DNA from: Methanobacteriota archaeon | Lineage (GTDB): Archaea; Thermoplasmatota; Thermoplasmata; SG8-5; JAGLSY01 | Assembly (NCBI GenBank): GCA_020696385.1 | Contig: JAEHCQ010000001.1 | Span: forward strand, 576,001 to 640,000 | Direction of reading: 5' to 3' | DNA: 64,000 nt | Part shown: positions 2-61,023 of the stretch, piece by piece | Layout of the letters: each line of letters starts with the position of its first letter | Position numbering within the stretch: position 1 is the stretch's first letter | The notes under the pieces: generated by a model | Database searches by the model: none | The model's input: the letters and a program-made list of their open reading frames with translations, nothing else | Told to the model about the DNA's origin: nothing | Program-made: the position numbers and the translations under genes

Positions 2-958
2 GATGACACTATCTGGATGTCTCAGAAAGGCATCAAGATCCTCGATAAGGTGGATAATATCGATGCCAAAAAGACCGTGGGCAGAGCGTGGAAGATATTG
101 GGAGTCTGCCATTTACTTATGGGTAATTTCGATGAGAGTCTCAGGTGTCACAATATGGGGAAGCAGATAGGGGAAGAATTAAACGACCTATACGGTCTGA
201 GTGCGGCTTACAATAACATAGGAAATATATATCTGACCATGGGATCGTTCCATGAGGCATTGGATCATTATGAGGAAGCCTTAAAGCTCTTGGAAAAGAT
301 CAAGGATATCCAAGGAAAATCATACACACTCAATAATATCGGCGTCATAAAGAAGAACTTGGGGGAGTATGAGGAAGCCCAAGAATACTACGAAAAATGC
401 CTGTTAATCATGGAAAAGATCGGAGACCCCAGCGGTATGTCCTCATCATGCAGTAATATCGGGAATGTCTTCGCAGAACAAGGAAGGCATGAAGATGCCC
501 TCAAGTCGTATGAGAAGGGGTTGGAGATAGCGCGACGTATAGGTGATAAACAACAGATAGTGAATAATCTTTCATCATTGGTACCTTCAAGGGTTGCATT
601 GGGCCAGATAGAGAAAGCGGAGGAGGAGTGTAAGGAGAGTATCGAACTCTCTCTTGAGATCGGATCCAAAAGAACAGAGATATGTGGGATCAGGACCCAA
701 GGACTTATCCATACAGCAAGAGGCCAGTATGAAGATGCGGGCGATTGCTTTGAATTGGCCTCAAGCACCTTTAGTGAACTTGGAATGGAGGTTGAAGTGG
801 CCAAGACACTATATGAACATGGAGTCATGTTCTTTAAGGCGGGTCATGATCAAAAAGGACATGAACTGATAAAAGAGGCAAGAGAAATATTCAAAATCTC
901 AGGCATGGTCAAACTGGTGGAGGATTGTGACAGGATCCTGAAGTCCAATATGAAATAA
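2..958 (+). CDS. Tetratricopeptide-repeat (TPR) protein, probably 5'-truncated by the window edge
   Basis: Repeated TPR helices (e.g. AYNNIGNIYLTMGSFHEALDHYEEAL, TLNNIGVIKKNLGEYEEAQEYYEKCL). The frame is open from position 2, upstream of the ATG at 17. Confidence 0.85.
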   Translation, partial: DDTIWMSQKGIKILDKVDNIDAKKTVGRAWKILGVCHLLMGNFDESLRCHNMGKQIGEELNDLYGLSAAYNNIGNIYLTMGSFHEALDHYEEALKLLEKIKDIQGKSYTLNNIGVIKKNLGEYEEAQEYYEKCLLIMEKIGDPSGMSSSCSNIGNVFAEQGRHEDALKSYEKGLEIARRIGDKQQIVNNLSSLVPSRVALGQIEKAEEECKESIELSLEIGSKRTEICGIRTQGLIHTARGQYEDAGDCFELASSTFSELGMEVEVAKTLYEHGVMFFKAGHDQKGHELIKEAREIFKISGMVKLVEDCDRILKSNMK

Positions 959-961
959 TCA

Positions 962-1128
962 TCATAATATCCTCGGACCGATGATCTGCCACAGTATGAG
1001 AAATAGAATGGAGAATGCAAGGAACATGGTCATCGAATCGATGGACTTTGTTCTTTTATCGGCTTCCATATTGGGCTTCAGCTTTTTCGAAATGTCAGTC
1101 AGCCAGTCCTTGAATATGTATCCACCGT
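962..1128 (-). repeat. Duplicate of the last 167 bp of the site-2 protease gene (direct repeat of 1321-1487)
   Basis: 160/167 nt identical to 1321-1487 by manual alignment. All 7 differences are synonymous, and both copies end ...WQIIGPRIL*. Confidence 0.95.
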
Positions 1129-1278
1129 GAGCCTTTTCTTTTATCCTCGCTGCGCCTTAGTTCGAATCGCTATGCTTCTCGAACTAATTATTTGCGAAAT
1201 TTACGCAAATAAGAGCTCGGGCTCCAAAAGAACAAGTATCACAGTGCAAAAGAAAACTCGCCCTCACCTACTCGCTCG
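1129..1278 (-). other. Structured non-coding element, copy 1 (CGAGCGAG...TTTTCTTTT...TTCTTTTGGA...CAGCGAG...AAAAGAAAAGGC)
   Basis: Same motif order as 56368-56515 (-) and 60864-60956 (+). Carries extra hairpins ttagttcga/tcgaactaa and ttatttgcg/cgcaaataa. Confidence 0.8.
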
Positions 1279-1320
1279 TTGTATTTGTTAAGCTGGGTGT
1301 GAGTAAGAACCATGCTCAAT

Positions 1321-2676
1321 TCAAAGTATGCGCGGCCCGATGATCTGCCACAGTATGAGAAATAGAATGGAGAATGCAAGGAACATGGTCATCGAATCTA
1401 TGGACTTTGTTCTTTTATCGGCTTCCATATTGGGCTTCAGCTTTTTCGAAATATCAGTCAGCCAGTCCTTGAATATGTATCCACCGTCCAGAGGAACCGC
1501 AGGTAGAGCATTGGTAAGGCCGACCATGAGATTGAGCCAGAAGATCCAATAAAAGGAATTGGCTATTACCCAGAAGATAGATTCGGGGATGGATGAAAGT
1601 GGGCCAGTGATCTCGTAGAAGACACTTGTCTCTTCAGTTACTGGGCTCATCCTCTGCAATGGCAAAGTGATGTACAGGGCCATTGATTGGATGATGCCAC
1701 CCTGCTCATCCGCTCCCTTGAAGGGGTGGAAAGCATCGGTGGATATGTCCTGAGTGGAGACACCCAGATAGCCTGTGCCATTATCTTCATCTTCCTCTGT
1801 ATAATCATATCTATTGGCTAGAGTGAGAGTGATTGAATCGAATCCCGTATCCTTATGATAGGTCTCGATCGTGATATTCTGTCCCGCGGTGGTATCTTGA
1901 ACAAGATCCGAGAAATCACCATAGGTTTCGACAGGAACTCCATCAAAGGAGACCATGATAGAACCTGCGGTCAAATTGTCGTAGGCTGGAGAATCTGGTG
2001 TGATGCCAGTTATTCCAATACCTTCGCCATTGTTCGCAGGGCCGACAGCTCCCATGAGCAGACCGGAAAAGATGAGCGCACATACCGCAGCGACTATGAG
2101 ATTGGATGCTGGACCGACAGCGAACATCCTCGTCCTGTGCTTGGAATCGATCTTCATGATCTTATCCTCATCGGGCTCCATGAAGGCTCCCATCGGGATT
2201 ATCCAGAAAGTGAGACCCAGTGATAGGACTTTCACGTCCGCATGTCTGGTCATTATGCCATGCGAGAACTCGTGAATTATGATAGCGACTACCAGGCCGA
2301 GAATACCATACCATAATGGGATTATCGGGTTTATGCCAGGCAGACCCAATAGCATGTGTGGTTCGACAACCGCGCTATCCGGTATTCTGACGACCAAAGT
2401 GGCCACCCAGACTAAGACCGCGGTCATAGTCAACATCGCCCCACCCACAAGGATGAGTGATATATTACCATAGAACTTGCAGAATTTTGTGTTCTTGGAT
2501 GCCCTCTCGATAAGATCGCGACCTTTCTTCGTCCTCCACATGAGGAAGGGGCCGTAGAAACTGAGATTGTACTTGTCCAGCTTGGCATAGTACTTACTCT
2601 TCCAGATGATGTACTCTACTATTATCCAGAGAAAGATTAGCCCGAAGGCGAACAGGTACCATTGTGTTAACGACAT
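1321..2676 (-). CDS. Site-2 (M50) intramembrane metalloprotease with PDZ domain
   Basis: HEFSH zinc motif, NALPAVPLDGG motif, PDZ-like GIGITGITPDSPA, multiple TM segments. ATG at 2676 preferred over the GTG at 2730. Confidence 0.92.
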   Translation of the reverse strand: MSLTQWYLFAFGLIFLWIIVEYIIWKSKYYAKLDKYNLSFYGPFLMWRTKKGRDLIERASKNTKFCKFYGNISLILVGGAMLTMTAVLVWVATLVVRIPDSAVVEPHMLLGLPGINPIIPLWYGILGLVVAIIIHEFSHGIMTRHADVKVLSLGLTFWIIPMGAFMEPDEDKIMKIDSKHRTRMFAVGPASNLIVAAVCALIFSGLLMGAVGPANNGEGIGITGITPDSPAYDNLTAGSIMVSFDGVPVETYGDFSDLVQDTTAGQNITIETYHKDTGFDSITLTLANRYDYTEEDEDNGTGYLGVSTQDISTDAFHPFKGADEQGGIIQSMALYITLPLQRMSPVTEETSVFYEITGPLSSIPESIFWVIANSFYWIFWLNLMVGLTNALPAVPLDGGYIFKDWLTDISKKLKPNMEADKRTKSIDSMTMFLAFSILFLILWQIIGPRIL

Positions 2677-2884: not shown

Positions 2885-5800
2885 ATGATACGCAATGTAA
2901 AGAAAAAATACAGCAAGAAACAAGTGCTTGGGCAAATGCTTCCCCTTGTCCAGACATGGTTCGATAGGAGCTTTAAAGATGTCACAGAGCCGCAGGCTTA
3001 CTCTATCCCCGTTATACAACAACGCAAGAATATTCTGATATCATCCCCCACTGGCTCTGGAAAGACACTCACCGCCTTCCTTTCCATAATAAATGAATTG
3101 ATGCTCAAGCAGGAAAAGGAAGAGCTAAAGGATGAGATATACTGTGTCTATGTATCTCCATTGAAAGCTCTGGCCAATGACATTGACAAGAATTTGAAAC
3201 AACCACTAGCTGAATTGAAAGACATGGCCAAGGAGCTGGGCTTGGAAGCTCCAGAGATCCGTGTCGGTGTGCGAACTGGAGACACAACTCCCTACGAACG
3301 GCAGAAGATGGCGAGAAAACCACCACATATCCTGATCACCACCCCGGAATCACTGGCCATTGTCCTGACCACGCCGAAGTTCAGCGAGAATCTGAGATCG
3401 GTCGAATGGCTGATAACTGATGAAATTCACGAAATATGCAATTCAAAGAGGGGGTCGATGCTATCCATCACCCTCGAACGCCTGCAGTCTCGTCTGGAGA
3501 AGGATGCGACCAGGATAGGGCTGTCCGCAACCCAGTCCCCCATTAAAGAGATCGCCAGATTCCTGGGAGGTTACGAAAATGGAAAAGAACGGGATGTCTG
3601 GCTGGTGCAAGCAGAAGGGGGTAAGGATTTTGATATCAAGGTCATCACACCAGTCGAGGACATAACATCCCTGCCCTTTGAGATCGTCAATGCCAGGATG
3701 TACGATCGGCTGAAGGAGATGATCGATCAAACACGGACAACACTGGTCTTCACCAACACCCGGAGTGGGACAGAACAGGTGATGCTGAAGCTGGGAGAGA
3801 TGGGGCTGGAGGATATCGCGGCCCATCATGGCAGTCTGAGCCGGGAGACCCGATTGGATGTCGAGGATAGATTGAAGAATGGCGAGTTGAAGGCCGCCAT
3901 TTCATCCACATCATTGGAGCTGGGTATAGATATCGGAAGTATCGATCTCGTTTGCCAGATAGGTTCTCCAAAGTCCATCGCCAAGGGATTGCAGAGAGTG
4001 GGCAGAGCCGGCCATGGTGTCGGCCAGCAAAGCAAGGGGCGTTTCATGGTCTTTGATAATGACGACCTGGTGGAATGCGCGGTACTGGCTAAAAGCGCGG
4101 TGGACCATGACATTGACAGGGTGAGCATCCCGGAGAGCCCGCTGGATGTACTGGCACAAACTATTGTTGGACTTTCATTGGAGAAGAGGTGGGACATTGA
4201 AGAGGCCTATTCGCTTATCAGGAATTCTTATGCATATCACAAATTGACCAAGAAAGACTACATGTCGGTACTCAGATACCTGGGAAGCCGGGACATGCCG
4301 AATGTGTATTCCAAGATCTGGCTGGACGAGGATGAAGGAACATTCGGCGTAAAGAAAGGAAGCCGCCTCATCTACTATCTGAATAGCGGCACCATACCTG
4401 AAGAAGCGAACTTCAAGGTATTCTCCGACAAAGGAGGCAGGCTGGGAGAATTGTCCGAGGGATTCGTGGAAAAGCTTGGCCCTGGTGATGTCTTCGTTCT
4501 GGGTGGTAAGAGCTACAGGTTCGAAAGAGCCAGAGGCATGAGTCTGTATGTGAAGGACGCGACTGGTAAGAGACCGACAGTCCCTTCATGGACCGGAGAA
4601 ATGCTCCCCAGAAGCTTCGATCTTTCAGTCAATATAGGGAAGTTCAGAGAGCGAGTCACAGACCGAATTAGAGAACTTGATCCTGATAAATTATCAAAGA
4701 AAGAAGTGGATGGAAAAACCAGGGAATTGAAGGAATGGCTCGTCAGAGAATATCATCTGGATGGTCAAGGGGCGAATAGTATAATCTCATATTTTAGAGA
4801 GCAACTGGCCTTTAATAAAAATGTCCCATCCGATCGCGACCTGCTGGTGGAGGAGTACGTGGACAAGAAAGGCAATACGAATTTAATATTCCACTTCTGT
4901 TTTGGTAGAAGGGTCAATGATGCACTTTCCAGAGCCTATGCCATGATATTATCCGACAAATATGACACTAACATCAGTGTTTCGATAACTGATGATAATT
5001 TCATGCTCACCCTGCCGAAGGAGATACCTCTGGAGAATTTTGAAGGATTGATAGATGAGAAGAAACTAGTGGGGCTTTTGGAAAGGGCGGTTGGCGAGAC
5101 CGAGCTTTTCAAGCACAGGTTCAGACACTGCAGCACAAGGGGCCTGATGGTTCTCCGTAACTATCAGGGAAGATCAGTGCCTGTTGGCAGACAGCAGCAG
5201 AGGGCGCAGAAGGTTCTGAGAGCCATAAGTGATTCGGATGACTTCCCCCTGGTGAAGGAAACTTACAGGGAGATCATGACCATGGTTATGGATCTGGACA
5301 ATGCAAGGGAGATCATCAGGTCTATCGAGGCAGGCAAGAGGGTGATGCATTACTCCAGCAGCAATGAGATACCATCGCCCTTTTCACATAATGTCGTCCT
5401 GTCTGGCATGTCGGATATCGTACTGATGCACGACCGCAGTGCTTTGCTCAAAGAAATGCACAGAAAAGTTCTTGATAGGATCGGGGGAGCGGGTTCGATA
5501 AAGCCCGAGTTCAAGACAGCGATTGTCAAGGAGCATTTTGCTGGCAAATTGCTGGACATGCATGTGAGGAAAAAGGAGGATATCATCCCACTTATGCGAA
5601 TGACTGGCCCCTTGGAATTATTCCAGAGAAAGGACAGGAGCATCTATGACTTCTCGGATGTCGAGACCAATATCCTGGCAGAATGGTGCAAGGAACTGGT
5701 CAATGATGGAGAAATTCATTCAGTATGGTCTGGAAGAAGTCTCTGGCTACCATCAGATATGGCAACCAGATACGCCTCGATCTACAGATCGGATGACGAG

Positions 5801-8401
5801 ATAACACCGGATGGTCAGAAGATCATCAATATACTGGATGATGCGAAAAAACCCATATCCACAAGATCCATATCCAAAAAACTAGAAGCCATGGACGAGA
5901 GTGAATGGGACAATGCGAGCACGAGAAAGGTATTGAACTCTCTCGAGAGGCGGTATCTCACGGCCAAGACCCAGATGGATGGAAAGGGCTTCGGACTTTG
6001 GGGGAAATTGGTGGTAGAACCTGCCCCGGAAGGGGAGAAGTATCTGAAAGATCGCGTGATCAACCATCTGGATCTTTTCGCACCCCTTTCATTGGAGGAA
6101 CTGTCCTTCGAACTTCGCCTTTCTGAAGAGGTGTTGGAAGGCGTATTGGAAGATATGCAATCCGAGATCGAAGTAATGGCGAAGTCTTTCACAGAGCCAT
6201 ATGTCCAGTACATGCTGGCTCAGGATTATTCCGATCTGAAGAGCACGGGAGAGGAGATCACCATGTCACCATCGGAATTGAGCAATTACCGCACCTGGAA
6301 ACATTTCAATGGATTCAAGAACATTGATGATTTCTTTGAAAGATACGGAAGTGTCGGGATGCTCAATGATGTAGTTTCCAGATTGGGACTGGATGGCATC
6401 GAGGATTGGGGTGAGAAAAGAAGAAGCGGGGATATCCTTCAGGGAAGATTCTGGGATGGGAGTGTTTGCTTTGTCAGGAAACAGGATGCGCCAAAATTCA
6501 TCAATGCCTTCAGAAAAGAGGAATTGGGCAAGGTGGACAAGCAGATATTGAAGATCATATCCGATAATCCAGGAGCGGATATAGTCAAGATACATGAGAT
6601 CTCGGAGATCCCGAAGGACGCGCTCAAGCCCATAGTGGAGAAATTGGATCGGAATATGCATATAGCGAGAAAGCCAGCGGAAAGAGCTGGCTTCAACCCG
6701 AACTTCGAATCCTGGTCAACCAGGAATAAATATTATAAATTGGATAGCAAACGATCTACTATTGATGGCAAGGCCTGGCTATTGAAGAAGCTGATATCGG
6801 CTTATGGACCGATATCAGCTTACGAGCTTGCCAGATCAGCTGGAATGAGGCGGGATGAGATAAGAGACCATCTGCTGAAGCTGAGAAAAACAGGGAAGCT
6901 GGCCGAGGTCTCCGTCATAGGTAGTGAGGGGCAGAAGCTCTATATCTGGGAGAAGGAAGTGAAGAGCCTTCGTAGTGGCGGAGGGAGAGCTCTCAAACAG
7001 GTGAAGGAAAAAGTCCATATCATGACCATCTTCGACCCTTTCGCCTTCCATCACAAGAATGAGATAAGAATGAAGTACGGAGATGCCTGGTACTACACTA
7101 TCTTCCGCGGCTCGAAGCTCATAGGTATGATGGAGATGTGGGAGATGAGCGGATGTCTCGAGATACGGGAACTGGATATCGACGATCCGGATGACCTGCC
7201 AGATGTTCTGAAGGCTATTGATGATTTTTCAGAATTCTACAAGCGCAACTATCACGAAGTTATCAGGATCACGGGAGCCTTTAGAGATAGTGTAGTTGAA
7301 ATGGATAAGAAATATATCAAGATATTCGAAAAGGCCGGGTACTTCAGATCGCGCAATTGGCTATTGAAAGGAGAGGTCGTCGATATGATGATGACCGATG
7401 ACCAGATGGTCTCCTACGCTCTCTGGAAACAACATGTCGTGCCAGAGAGGCATTTCCAGGATATCGAGGAAGGTCTGGCCAAGCTGGGCGGCTTCAAATC
7501 CGACCTGGAGACCGACCTCAGAGTGGATGATCCACGAAATCTTAAGAGGATGTTCAAGGACGAGATAGTCGAGCGAGGCCAGCTCATACCCGAATACATG
7601 ACCTATGCCCTACCTGAAGAGATGGCACTTTACAAAGCCGCGAAGCATGTGGAGATCGATAGAGAAATGAAGTACATGGTTACCGCACTTAACTGGGAGC
7701 ATGGATTGAAACGGAATAGATTGCTGGAATCCACCCCTCTGAGCTTCAGGAATGCGGCAGACGCTCTCACCCGCCTCAATAAAGGCCTCCATGTCCTTCG
7801 AGATCCAAAGAACAATTACTACCTCACCCCGGACTACAGGTATGATAGGGAAGAAGCCAGAGACAAGGTCCTCTGGCTTATTTTTGATTCCTTCGGGGTA
7901 TTCACCGCAGAAGGCCTATCCATGTACACCAAAAGCGAGTACAAGATGGGGGAGATAAGGAGAGCCCTGAGCAGGTTCGAAGCTCAGGGGAAATTGGTCA
8001 AAGGATTCTTGTCAGAAGATGATAATACATTATACTGGCTTGTAAAAGAAGACATGCCCAAATTGCCCATGGAACCTCATGATGTGAATATCATTCTCGC
8101 TCCATCCGCCTATGACAGATTATCCACATACCTCATGCCCATGACAAGGAAGAAATTCGGGTTTGGTTCATGCTTCATCGTGATATATGGAGGGATCATC
8201 GTCGGGGTCTTCAGGGCGAATATGAGAAGGACCGAGCTTCTGGTCGGGGAATACAGAGGCGAGAAAGAGGGATGGGGAATGATACAGGATTATGCGATCG
8301 ATATAGGGCGGCGGATGAGTATCAAGGAAAATGAGGATGTCATAAGTGAAGAGGAGATCATGGACTGGTATGATAAGACATCTGGCCGTGAATTTAATTG
8401 A
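2885..8401 (+). CDS. lhr: Large ATP-dependent DEAD/H helicase Lhr with extended winged-helix C-terminal region
   Basis: SPTGSGKT, YVSPLKALANDI, DEIH, GLSAT, HHGSLS, SLELGIDIG, QRVGRAGH and GTIP motifs of the Lhr core, plus ~950 extra C-terminal residues. Confidence 0.92.
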   Translation: MIRNVKKKYSKKQVLGQMLPLVQTWFDRSFKDVTEPQAYSIPVIQQRKNILISSPTGSGKTLTAFLSIINELMLKQEKEELKDEIYCVYVSPLKALANDIDKNLKQPLAELKDMAKELGLEAPEIRVGVRTGDTTPYERQKMARKPPHILITTPESLAIVLTTPKFSENLRSVEWLITDEIHEICNSKRGSMLSITLERLQSRLEKDATRIGLSATQSPIKEIARFLGGYENGKERDVWLVQAEGGKDFDIKVITPVEDITSLPFEIVNARMYDRLKEMIDQTRTTLVFTNTRSGTEQVMLKLGEMGLEDIAAHHGSLSRETRLDVEDRLKNGELKAAISSTSLELGIDIGSIDLVCQIGSPKSIAKGLQRVGRAGHGVGQQSKGRFMVFDNDDLVECAVLAKSAVDHDIDRVSIPESPLDVLAQTIVGLSLEKRWDIEEAYSLIRNSYAYHKLTKKDYMSVLRYLGSRDMPNVYSKIWLDEDEGTFGVKKGSRLIYYLNSGTIPEEANFKVFSDKGGRLGELSEGFVEKLGPGDVFVLGGKSYRFERARGMSLYVKDATGKRPTVPSWTGEMLPRSFDLSVNIGKFRERVTDRIRELDPDKLSKKEVDGKTRELKEWLVREYHLDGQGANSIISYFREQLAFNKNVPSDRDLLVEEYVDKKGNTNLIFHFCFGRRVNDALSRAYAMILSDKYDTNISVSITDDNFMLTLPKEIPLENFEGLIDEKKLVGLLERAVGETELFKHRFRHCSTRGLMVLRNYQGRSVPVGRQQQRAQKVLRAISDSDDFPLVKETYREIMTMVMDLDNAREIIRSIEAGKRVMHYSSSNEIPSPFSHNVVLSGMSDIVLMHDRSALLKEMHRKVLDRIGGAGSIKPEFKTAIVKEHFAGKLLDMHVRKKEDIIPLMRMTGPLELFQRKDRSIYDFSDVETNILAEWCKELVNDGEIHSVWSGRSLWLPSDMATRYASIYRSDDEITPDGQKIINILDDAKKPISTRSISKKLEAMDESEWDNASTRKVLNSLERRYLTAKTQMDGKGFGLWGKLVVEPAPEGEKYLKDRVINHLDLFAPLSLEELSFELRLSEEVLEGVLEDMQSEIEVMAKSFTEPYVQYMLAQDYSDLKSTGEEITMSPSELSNYRTWKHFNGFKNIDDFFERYGSVGMLNDVVSRLGLDGIEDWGEKRRSGDILQGRFWDGSVCFVRKQDAPKFINAFRKEELGKVDKQILKIISDNPGADIVKIHEISEIPKDALKPIVEKLDRNMHIARKPAERAGFNPNFESWSTRNKYYKLDSKRSTIDGKAWLLKKLISAYGPISAYELARSAGMRRDEIRDHLLKLRKTGKLAEVSVIGSEGQKLYIWEKEVKSLRSGGGRALKQVKEKVHIMTIFDPFAFHHKNEIRMKYGDAWYYTIFRGSKLIGMMEMWEMSGCLEIRELDIDDPDDLPDVLKAIDDFSEFYKRNYHEVIRITGAFRDSVVEMDKKYIKIFEKAGYFRSRNWLLKGEVVDMMMTDDQMVSYALWKQHVVPERHFQDIEEGLAKLGGFKSDLETDLRVDDPRNLKRMFKDEIVERGQLIPEYMTYALPEEMALYKAAKHVEIDREMKYMVTALNWEHGLKRNRLLESTPLSFRNAADALTRLNKGLHVLRDPKNNYYLTPDYRYDREEARDKVLWLIFDSFGVFTAEGLSMYTKSEYKMGEIRRALSRFEAQGKLVKGFLSEDDNTLYWLVKEDMPKLPMEPHDVNIILAPSAYDRLSTYLMPMTRKKFGFGSCFIVIYGGIIVGVFRANMRRTELLVGEYRGEKEGWGMIQDYAIDIGRRMSIKENEDVISEEEIMDWYDKTSGREFN

Positions 8402-56343: not shown

Positions 56344-56367
56344 TAAAAGCGCCGAGAGGGAGATTCG
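56344..56367 (-). repeat. 24-bp duplicate of the tRNA-Ser 3' end (att-like)
   Basis: taaaagcgccgagagggagattcg is identical at 56344-56367 and 56529-56552. Confidence 0.92.
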
Positions 56368-56515
56368 GAACGGAAGCCTTTTCTTTTAATTCTCGCTGTG
56401 CTGGCCGGACTCCAAAAGAACAAGTATTCCAATATCGACCAAACAAGTTTGGAAAATAGATGCGCGAAAACACGCATCTAAAAAAGAAAATTCGTCCGGC
56501 ACTGCTCGCTCGGGA
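56368..56515 (-). other. Structured non-coding element, copy 2
   Basis: Minus strand reads TCCCGAGCGAG..GCCGGAC GAA TTTTCTTTT [two hairpins] ATACTTGTTCTTTTGGA GTCCGGC CAGCACAGCGAG..AAAAGAAAAGGC. Confidence 0.8.
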
Positions 56516-56534
56516 GATAAGATAAGATTAAAAG

Positions 56535-56618
56535 CGCCGAGAGGGAGATTCGAACTCCCGAGTGGTAACCCACACAAGATTTCCAGTCTTGCGCCCTACC
56601 AGGCTGAGCTATCTCGGC
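56535..56618 (-). tRNA. tRNA-Ser (GGA)
   Basis: GCCGAGA/TCTCGGC acceptor, G discriminator, CAAGA-CTGGAAA-TCTTG anticodon arm, long variable arm, GGGAG-TTCGAAT-CTCCC T arm. Confidence 0.95.
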
Positions 56619-60799: not shown

Positions 60800-61023
60800 C
60801 GGGGCATGCTCGAACTGGCCGCATATACATCGTTGGGAATATGCCATGCATATAATTACAATTCCCGAGCGAGTAGGGTCGGGCGAGTTTCTTTATTTGT
60901 CCGTCTTTTTTCTTTGGAGCCCGATCCAGCACAGCGAGGGTTAAAGAAAAAAGTGGCGGGGCATAAGCTCGAATTCATCCGCATGGACATCGTAGATAAT
61001 ATGCTCTGCATCTAAATGCAATT
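60800..61023 (+). repeat. Degenerate direct repeats (60800-60863 and 60957-61023) flanking element copy 3
   Basis: Manual alignment gives 51 identities over 67 columns (cggggcat..gctcgaa..ccgcat..acatcgt..aatatgc..tgcat..caatt). Confidence 0.8.
60864..60956 (+). other. Structured non-coding element, copy 3 (minimal form)
   Basis: CCCGAGCGAGTAGG GTCGGGC GAG TTTCTTTA...TTTTCTTTGGA GCCCGAT CCAGCACAGCGAG..TAAAGAAAA. Confidence 0.8.

Follow-up and report, generated by a model that had tools for sequence, protein, structure and literature searches.

Repetitive extragenic palindromic (REP) sequences and bacterial interspersed mosaic elements (BIMEs) with their RAYT proteins, like the hairpin elements derived from IS200/IS605 (Y1 HUH), are small, gene-less and multi-copy, biased in orientation and structured on one strand. 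We know of no target duplication made by any of them. In the sections of their report on which we draw, Furuta et al. 2010 describe restriction-modification units in Helicobacter, Haemophilus, Neisseria and other bacteria that were inserted with a long target duplication (PMC2853133). According to the same sections, the repeats measure 46-423 bp and often lie over a start or stop codon so that the gene remains intact, relatives hold empty sites, the mechanism is not known and the screen retained no archaeal case (PMC2853133). Archaeal elements driven by an integrase are described in the part of a review cited here as replacing the ends of genes and tRNAs and as stacking in tandem (PMC8371274), and the integrase of pTN3 from Thermococcus, in the portion of the paper used here, as able to integrate or excise DNA wherever two similar segments of about 100 bp are present (PMC5495485). 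We report here on a 64,000-nt stretch of DNA from a Thermoplasmata archaeon (assembly GCA_020696385.1, contig JAEHCQ010000001.1, positions 576,001 to 640,000 of the forward strand), called the window below, in which a structured element of about 100 nt that carries no gene, which we call E, has on either side a copy of the 3' end of a site-2 protease (S2P) gene.

The S2P locus belongs to a widespread and undescribed family: tiny structured elements located inside long duplications of gene ends that have diverged silently. It has the architecture common to the family and the same fixed orientation, its site is empty in a relative, and the differences between its two gene-end copies are coding-like. 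We consider it probable that the 359-nt unit behind S2P consists of the gene-less mobile element E together with a 167-nt target duplication, and that pieces of this arrangement were later exchanged between lineages. The genome that holds the window (G000) is a metagenome bin of 50 contigs, 94.5% complete; contigs are given C numbers below. Gene calls are based on open reading frame (ORF) length alone. The parts of the locus are as follows.

2..958, plus strand: 3' part of a gene of tetratricopeptide (TPR) repeats, convergent, open at the window start; stop TAA at 956-958; Pfam TPR_12/TPR_1.
962..1128, minus strand: orphan S2P 3' end (last 55 codons and stop); its right end abuts the 5' end of E.
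1129..1155, plus strand: E 5' segment (GAGCCTTTTCTTTTATCCTCGCTGCGC...), like the 5' part of other genomic copies.
1156..1213, plus strand: nested 58-nt double-hairpin module (B), an independent dispersed repeat that interrupts E.
1214..1282, plus strand: E 3' segment with inner stem, A-rich loop and closing stem (...CTACTCGCTCG); nhmmer match C11:577215-577281, model positions 33-99; covarying family stems.
1283..1320, plus strand: variable 3' tail or filler of 38 nt between E and the stop of the intact gene, unrelated to the sequence after the orphan.
1321..1487, minus strand: genic repeat copy, the functional 3' end of the S2P gene, from the repeat alignment and translation.
1321..2676, minus strand: site-2 protease gene, 451 aa, ATG at 2676; Peptidase_M50 into which a PDZ domain is inserted.

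The direct repeat (962-1128 and 1321-1487) is identical at 160 of its 167 nt (96%), with seven mismatches, no gaps and a spacing of 359 nt. On the minus strand both copies translate into the same 55 residues followed by a stop, GGYIFKDWLTDISKKLKPNMEADKRTKSIDSMTMFLAFSILFLILWQIIGPRIL (GGYIFKDW...GPRIL). All seven differences are synonymous and fall at codon positions 3, 3, 3, 1, 3, 1 and 3 (GAT/GAC, ATA/ATC, GGG/GGT, CGC/AGG and CTT/TTA). The probability that the peptide would be unchanged after seven random substitutions in the repeat is 5e-6, and with random bases placed at the seven observed sites it is 0.011. Five of the seven differences lie inside the last 18 nt (P = 2.5e-4 if the spread were uniform), so that strong difference is confined to the last ~20 nt and the remaining ~150 nt differ at two sites. 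In view of the probabilities for random substitution and for uniform spread, chance can be rejected as the source of this pattern. An earlier note on this DNA, written from its letters alone, had described two S2P 3' ends with purely synonymous differences clustered toward the stop, a repeat beginning inside the Asp codon of the conserved LDGG motif and an orphan that ends 3 nt from the TPR stop. Each of these observations held: the repeat begins at the 'AC' of that codon, and the orphan stop (962-964) faces the TPR stop at 956-958. In the ORF list of the window, the orphan frame has no start codon that would yield an ORF of at least 40 aa.

The same note had proposed that the 359-nt unit is an insertion without integrase or cargo, and had advised a search for an empty site in a close relative. 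Such a site is present in G002, a genome of the same genus, in which the TPR and S2P genes are orthologous and adjacent, E is absent and the segment occurs once (C11:608896-609060), both G000 copies aligning to that stretch; the unit in the window carries neither an integrase nor cargo. The S2P proteins of the two genomes are 90% identical over residues 1-451. Because the target end is duplicated, the S2P gene in G000 stays whole. Over 20 kb around S2P the genomes are collinear, with successive identities of 89, 79 (TPR gene), 86 (S2P), 87 and 86%, and a species-level chimera at this locus is ruled out by the similar identity to G002 on both sides. G002 is also empty at three further E loci of G000 (C46:100224, C33:252804 and C3:2427).

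The 192-nt spacer between the S2P copies (1129-1320) is made up of modules that recur elsewhere in G000. Bases 1-27 and 87-150 of the spacer are the two halves of E, which are contiguous in other copies, and bases 28-85 are module B. Since the halves are contiguous elsewhere and module B recurs alone, the E copy at the S2P locus has been interrupted by a nested insertion. Module B stands by itself at C11:77828-77885, C11:224455-224512 and C47:89654-89711, with 93-97% identity, and its exact letters turn up again in one contig from an unrelated metagenome run. Both of its hairpins appear when the spacer is folded. It is also listed at C48:3093-3152, and composites of E with module B, nearly identical to one another with differing flanks, are found in metagenome contigs from brine, marine, sediment and cold-seep samples. 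No gene-sized ORF was found in the 192-nt insert; the frames of at least 40 aa that touch it are chance frames of 54 and 46 aa. No inverted repeat links the ends of 1129-1320 (GGAAGCC... and ...CTCGCTCGG are not complementary), and neither a tRNA nor a known RNA was found in the spacer. A scan of 800-1700 against Rfam gave five matches, all far below the gathering scores (19.1 bits at best, where 70 are required), and E proper had none. A scan for promoters and terminators of bacterial type, with models that are ill-suited to archaea, found nothing that exceeds shuffled sequence. Folding of the full 192-nt spacer is weak (z = -1.92, equaled by 10 of 200 shuffles), and support for the structure of E therefore comes from covariation within the family and not from the interrupted copy at S2P. 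As for the tail (1283-1320), the idea that it was carried over from another E locus was dropped because no convincing match was found in G000; the tails of several E copies have in common merely a loose ATTTG-like start.

In G000, E has 44 nhmmer matches at an E-value below 1e-3 and 42 with a covariance model. The covariance model also finds it in 29 of 61 related Thermoplasmata genomes, with 1-42 matches in each; among them are 20 of the order's 22 genomes (G000 counted) and members of four other families of the class. Base pairing was assessed on 62 copies from many genomes, in an alignment that was fitted to the model and is biased toward structure: 93.2% of cells are paired, compared with 69.4% after shuffling, and none of 500 shuffles reaches the observed value. 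Double-sided changes occupy 191 cells compared with 58.7 in the shuffles, and when the partners are slid by 1-3 columns the paired fraction is at most 44%. An independent treatment of 20 copies with MAFFT and RNAalifold returned identical stems. One G.U pair is invariant (61/61) and another position is U.G in 16 of 61 copies. Because of the invariant G.U pair, the fold is possible on the E-sense strand alone, as RNA or as single-stranded DNA. Runs of T occur in E on both orientations. A literature search, which covered titles and the openings of abstracts and did not extend to subscription journals, found no description of an E-like element.

To examine the flanks of E in G000, we took the 39 profile matches that keep the 5' part of the element; matches without this part were excluded, and the S2P copy, whose 5' match is weak, was added by hand later. 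A flanking direct repeat was counted when its score was at least 20 and its left copy ended at the 5' end of E. Such repeats, 17-222 nt in length, accompany 29 of the 39 copies and 1 of 150 random sites, and each E copy has its own repeat sequence. Some are perfect (64, 60, 66 and 47 nt in G000; 111 nt in G003). In other assemblies such flanks are less frequent: one count gives 8 of 27 copies, and counts by genome give 5 of 8 in G002, 1 of 7 in G007 and 1 of 8 in G005; in G048, which is a single contig, flanking repeats are present in 4 of 8 rows, one locus being counted twice. The layout is constant: the 5' end of E is joined to the internal breakpoint of the orphan, and the 3' end, with a tail of 0 to ~50 nt, points toward the intact gene end. 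When ORFs of at least 150 aa are considered, at 11 loci the repeat contains the 3' end of a gene read from the other strand than E, its stop codon falling where the right-hand repeat begins, and the mirror arrangement does not occur. E is therefore invariably antisense to the gene at these long-gene loci. With the same ORF limit, a gene start lies inside the right-hand copy at two loci, again with no mirror case. Two further copies of E lie in the window.

56371..56513, plus strand: second E copy, antisense to tRNA-Ser(GGA) (56534-56618, minus strand).
60864..60951, minus strand: third E copy, with a weak flanking repeat of 47 nt and 12 mismatches.

At the tRNA-Ser locus a 24-nt direct repeat (56344-56367 and 56529-56552) takes in the final ~19 nt of the tRNA and 5 nt of trailer, and the architecture and the orientation rule are those seen at protein genes. 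The constant antisense position behind a gene, the conserved structure on one strand and the T-runs in both orientations would all suit a device used by the host, for example alternative 3' ends or a switch in which E serves as a terminator or antisense RNA cassette and is toggled by recombination between the repeats. We regard this as very improbable, since the same peptide is encoded by both ends with no gain at the level of protein, the site is empty in G002 and the E copy at S2P has been broken by the nested insert.

The coding-like character of the orphan is not peculiar to S2P. Across the 11 long-gene loci, 66 of the 79 codons that differ between orphan and gene are synonymous, stop-for-stop swaps included, and most of the 13 non-synonymous changes are conservative. 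A wider set of 20 loci, in which an ORF of at least 90 aa ends at the right-hand copy, gives 84 synonymous and 40 non-synonymous codons; this set includes doubtful short ORFs and stretches that run past the repeat. At one locus the two ends read PLDRNVAKLVI* and ...VL* with five silent changes, and at another EISKRF-TGA faces EISKKF-TAA. At C3:2427, over 101 nt, there are 14 silent changes and three conservative replacements, the fourth non-synonymous codon being the earlier stop of the gene (TAG vs GGA). The pattern is also present in other genomes. Silent-biased differences of this kind are not the product of neutral decay of a dead duplicate, and the proposal of the earlier note that both S2P copies evolved under coding selection finds support at this locus and across the family.

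These data bear on the simplest account of the locus, in which cut-and-paste or replicative transposition with widely staggered cuts, as in IS1634 and IS1549, made a perfect 167-nt duplication whose copies then diverged in place. Long and variable direct repeats of 8-514 bp are on record for those insertion sequences in the part of the source that we cite (PMC2266710). Several E copies do have perfect repeats, repeat length ranges over 17-222 nt, and a cut of this sort could explain how the duplication first originated. Divergence in place, however, predicts random changes in the orphan, whereas all seven are silent at S2P (the 5e-6 probability given above) and the 11 loci show the same excess. 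A symmetric staggered cut also does not predict an orientation fixed at 11 to 0, searches of G000 and G001-G008 turned up no transposase of the IS1634 family, and none in G000 turned up DDE_Tnp_1. As a full account of the S2P locus we consider it unlikely.

Comparison with G002 also bears on where the pieces of each locus came from. At C46:100224, C33:252804 and C3:2427 the stop-proximal part of the orphan and its outer flank match G002, and the stop-proximal part of the gene, next to E, deviates. Where the internal part differs at these three loci, the relationship is inverted: the gene is G002-like and the orphan resembles other lineages. At these loci, then, sequence adjoining E has a foreign look and the outer parts are G002-like. 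At C3 the ancestral ending HHGHGH* is found in the orphan, and the gene now ends in HHGH*, directly before E. The earlier note had supposed that the orphan is the original S2P end, displaced when the 3' end of an ortholog came in. The first supposition finds support at these three loci, where the outgroup marks the stop-proximal part of the orphan as resident and the gene end as incoming, but the S2P locus itself cannot be polarized, and there G002 sides with the genic copy at five of the seven sites. The arrival of a whole 3' end is too simple a description, since ~150 nt differ at just two sites. Synonymous sites are roughly half saturated between G000 and G002, and for this reason G002 does not identify the resident copy at S2P; among metagenome relatives of S2P, the best 80 loci are at most 48% identical and none is informative. 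The earlier reading of the S2P locus was largely right and too local, having overlooked a family of ~40 copies with the same architecture as well as the nested repeat.

At C33:199750, E is present in both G000 and G002, and the gene-end copies within a genome are more alike than the orthologous copies between genomes. G000 has at this locus a third, older copy of the gene end that is coding-like still. The common insertion lies behind a 190-aa gene, with three successive gene-end copies in G000 (C33:199630-200010) and its counterpart at C22:239150-239450 in G002, where a stray fragment of the E 3' end remains to the left of the orphan. This common locus suggests repeated insertion and partial deletion at a single site.

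Some observations on S2P and its surroundings may be recorded here. In G005, which belongs to another family of the order, an E copy (C22:103482-103585) precedes the start of the S2P orthologue by ~145 nt and so lies at the opposite end of the gene. Three genomes of the order (G017 C54, G020 C13 and G021 C51) have a split S2P match, in which the last ~35 residues match ~100-130 nt past the remainder within a single open frame, an arrangement that suggests insertion in frame close to the C-terminus. Divergent from S2P in the window is an ORF of 1838 aa with a helicase-like N-terminal part (2885-8401).

We propose the following course of events. A non-autonomous E would insert at a gene end with a long target duplication. 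Afterwards E and adjoining pieces of the gene end would pass between related lineages by homologous recombination, either through Campbell (ends-in) integration of a cassette or small circle holding E, tail and gene end, or through co-conversion around E. Crossovers would tend to land where donor and recipient are the same, leaving silent differences at the edges, and later gene conversion between the copies would homogenize the middle. Each copy would then be a mosaic of alleles that are functional in some lineage, which would account for differences that are silent and clustered near the stop. For the first duplication there are two candidates: a small circle carrying E with its 3' flank could have integrated, or the target could have been cut with a wide stagger. 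Speculatively, an event that is one-ended and strand-specific, and that picks up E along with the DNA lying 3' of it, would fit both the fixed polarity of E and its sharp 5' end. Later homogenization is suggested by the copies at C33:199750 and by a locus of G007 (L242) discussed below.

Which enzyme might move E was addressed by profile searches. Candidates for the IS1634-type transposase (NF033559) numbered zero in G000, G001-G005, G007 and G008, and two in G006, neither of which was a match; this transposase was not found in genomes rich in E and occurs mostly in those without it. DDE_Tnp_1 (PF01609), reverse transcriptase and TnpB gave no match in G000. The one classical transposase found there is an IS200/IS605-type TnpA of 143 aa that scores below the RAYT cut-off. 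Its locus (C50:1516-2396, L173) is itself an E locus: past the stop come a tRNA-like gene and E, then an orphan TnpA 3' end that reads YIAVQRYDHGTRASIVKK, compared with ...GSRPSVVQKK in the gene. A REPtron-like link between E and a Y1 transposase was considered and set aside, E lying near a TnpA gene in G000 alone. G000 also has four tyrosine recombinase matches, all located away from the E copies examined. Two of these (C1:129-653 and C1:23844-24296) are on contig C1, which is 30.7 kb long with a G+C of 0.423, compared with ~0.45-0.46 in the large contigs, and may be an integrated or free mobile element.

The recombinases bring up the possibility that the unit is a remnant like a cis-mobilizable element (CIME), in which an integrase-driven element used the S2P 3' end as its attachment site and later shrank to ~190 nt. 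Replacement of a gene end with a displaced orphan, tandem stacking (three copies at C33:199750) and use of a tRNA 3' end (56344-56552) are habits of tyrosine-integrase elements according to the part of the review cited above (PMC8371274), and G000 does possess four such recombinase matches. The repeats of E do regenerate the target end, but they hold no attachment site in common with an integrase-bearing element. Some 40 loci have the same ~100-nt structured sequence with a different repeat at each and no single attachment site, no integrase lies beside the copies examined, and independent decay would not leave an identical 100 nt time after time. A shrunken integrative element is accordingly an improbable origin for the unit.

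Several results weigh against insertion of E followed by exchange between lineages. First, the enzyme searches did not tie a mobilizing enzyme to E in G000: E is near the TnpA gene in 1 of 30 TnpA loci (that of G000), and over the 61 genomes the co-occurrence is weak, with both present in 19, E only in 10, TnpA only in 10 and neither in 22, these related genomes being non-independent samples. Second, many E copies elsewhere have no flanking repeat (19 of 27 in one count; by genome, 6 of 7 in G007 and 7 of 8 in G005). Third, identity in the 12 nt outside the two repeat boundaries is 0.30 and 0.31, compared with 0.26-0.27 when the pairing is shuffled (98 and 60 of 2000 shuffles are as high); similarity this weak means that the junctions reveal no joining mechanism. 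Fourth, at L242 of G007, 119 identical nt are followed abruptly by a homologous tail that is very diverged, and because of this locus a simple single-crossover model needs later homogenization. Fifth, at the seven S2P sites that differ, G002 is like the genic copy in five cases, like the orphan in one and unlike both in the last. Finally, mixing of two strains during assembly could produce the five clustered differences.

The last point deserves attention. E and a duplication might exist in one strain while the differences between the copies are variants of co-assembled strains that were run together in a single contig; in the worst case the whole duplicate would be a false join made at a repeat. 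G000 is in 50 contigs, and no sequencing run holding the source organism was found among the six runs listed, each with 0.04 of the sampled words and none an RNA run. Furthermore, the differences sit at the edges of the repeat, in the words that link to unique flanks, and the middle is identical, which two strains in a graph assembler would also give. Against this, the junctions at 1128/1129 and 1320/1321 have at most ~9 nt in common with other sequence, too little for a graph to invent them. Four of the runs contain short contigs of other organisms that fall on E and module B, and one of 98 nt that covers 1260-1357; this last, an independent cold-seep contig with eight differences (92% identity), spans the junction of E tail and stop. 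The architecture recurs at 29 loci in G000 and in other assemblies including the single-contig G048, local divergence of 17-28% (C3:2427 and the S2P end) far exceeds the level of strains, and to the left and right alike the flanking sequence is collinear with G002 and equally identical to it. We therefore think an assembly artefact, in either form, improbable.

If insertion of E with later exchange is correct, tiny non-coding elements drive a steady traffic of gene ends between related archaea that involves dozens of housekeeping genes and tRNAs. In bacteria, insertion with long target duplication has been known for 25 years and still lacks a mechanism; E allows recent insertions to be compared with old ones over many genomes, along with empty sites and rules of orientation. 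For the annotation of Thermoplasmata bins, E explains orphan fragments of gene ends and what look like 'duplicated 3' ends', and its loci are weak points of assemblies. A bolder possibility, which we offer tentatively, is that E represents a new class of archaeal mobile DNA, in which a ~100-nt strand-specific hairpin captures variable DNA on its 3' side, moves as a mini-cassette or small circle, enters the same gene elsewhere by homology and displaces the resident end, so that 3' ends are reshuffled at dozens of essential genes and tRNAs without an integrase of its own.

E resembles the REP and BIME sequences in being small, multi-copy, structured on one strand and biased in orientation, and one IS200-type TnpA is present in G000; it differs from them in the long duplications at 29 of its 39 copies and in lying away from TnpA at 29 of 30 loci. 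It does not have the form of a miniature inverted-repeat transposable element, as it lacks terminal inverted repeats and its duplications are long and variable instead of short and fixed. Long and variable repeats (17-222 nt in G000) are a feature in common with IS1634 and IS1549, but these are autonomous elements of 1.5-2 kb with a transposase, whereas E has neither terminal inverted repeats nor an ORF. Like integrative elements and CIMEs, E loci regenerate the end of the target gene, place the displaced copy on the far side, use tRNA 3' ends and form tandem stacks, and for E, too, the replacement end would derive from a different lineage. A family of integrative elements, however, has a single attachment site and a dedicated integrase, whereas every copy of E is flanked by a repeat of its own (17-222 nt) and has no linked integrase. 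The segments of ~100 bp used by the pTN3 integrase are within the size range of the E repeats, a likeness by analogy only. With the units of Furuta et al. the S2P locus has in common repeats longer than 30 bp, a single-copy empty site in a relative and an insert free of mobility genes, and it departs from them in that the non-coding insert has no restriction and modification genes. In the sections of that report cited here, the units are kilobases of protein genes in bacteria, with one insert per locus type, whereas E is a ~100-nt structured non-coding element of archaea with ~40 copies per genome, a fixed orientation and silent repeat differences. E probably works both like a miniature integrative element flanked by attachment sites and devoid of an integrase, and like an 'insertion with long target duplication'.

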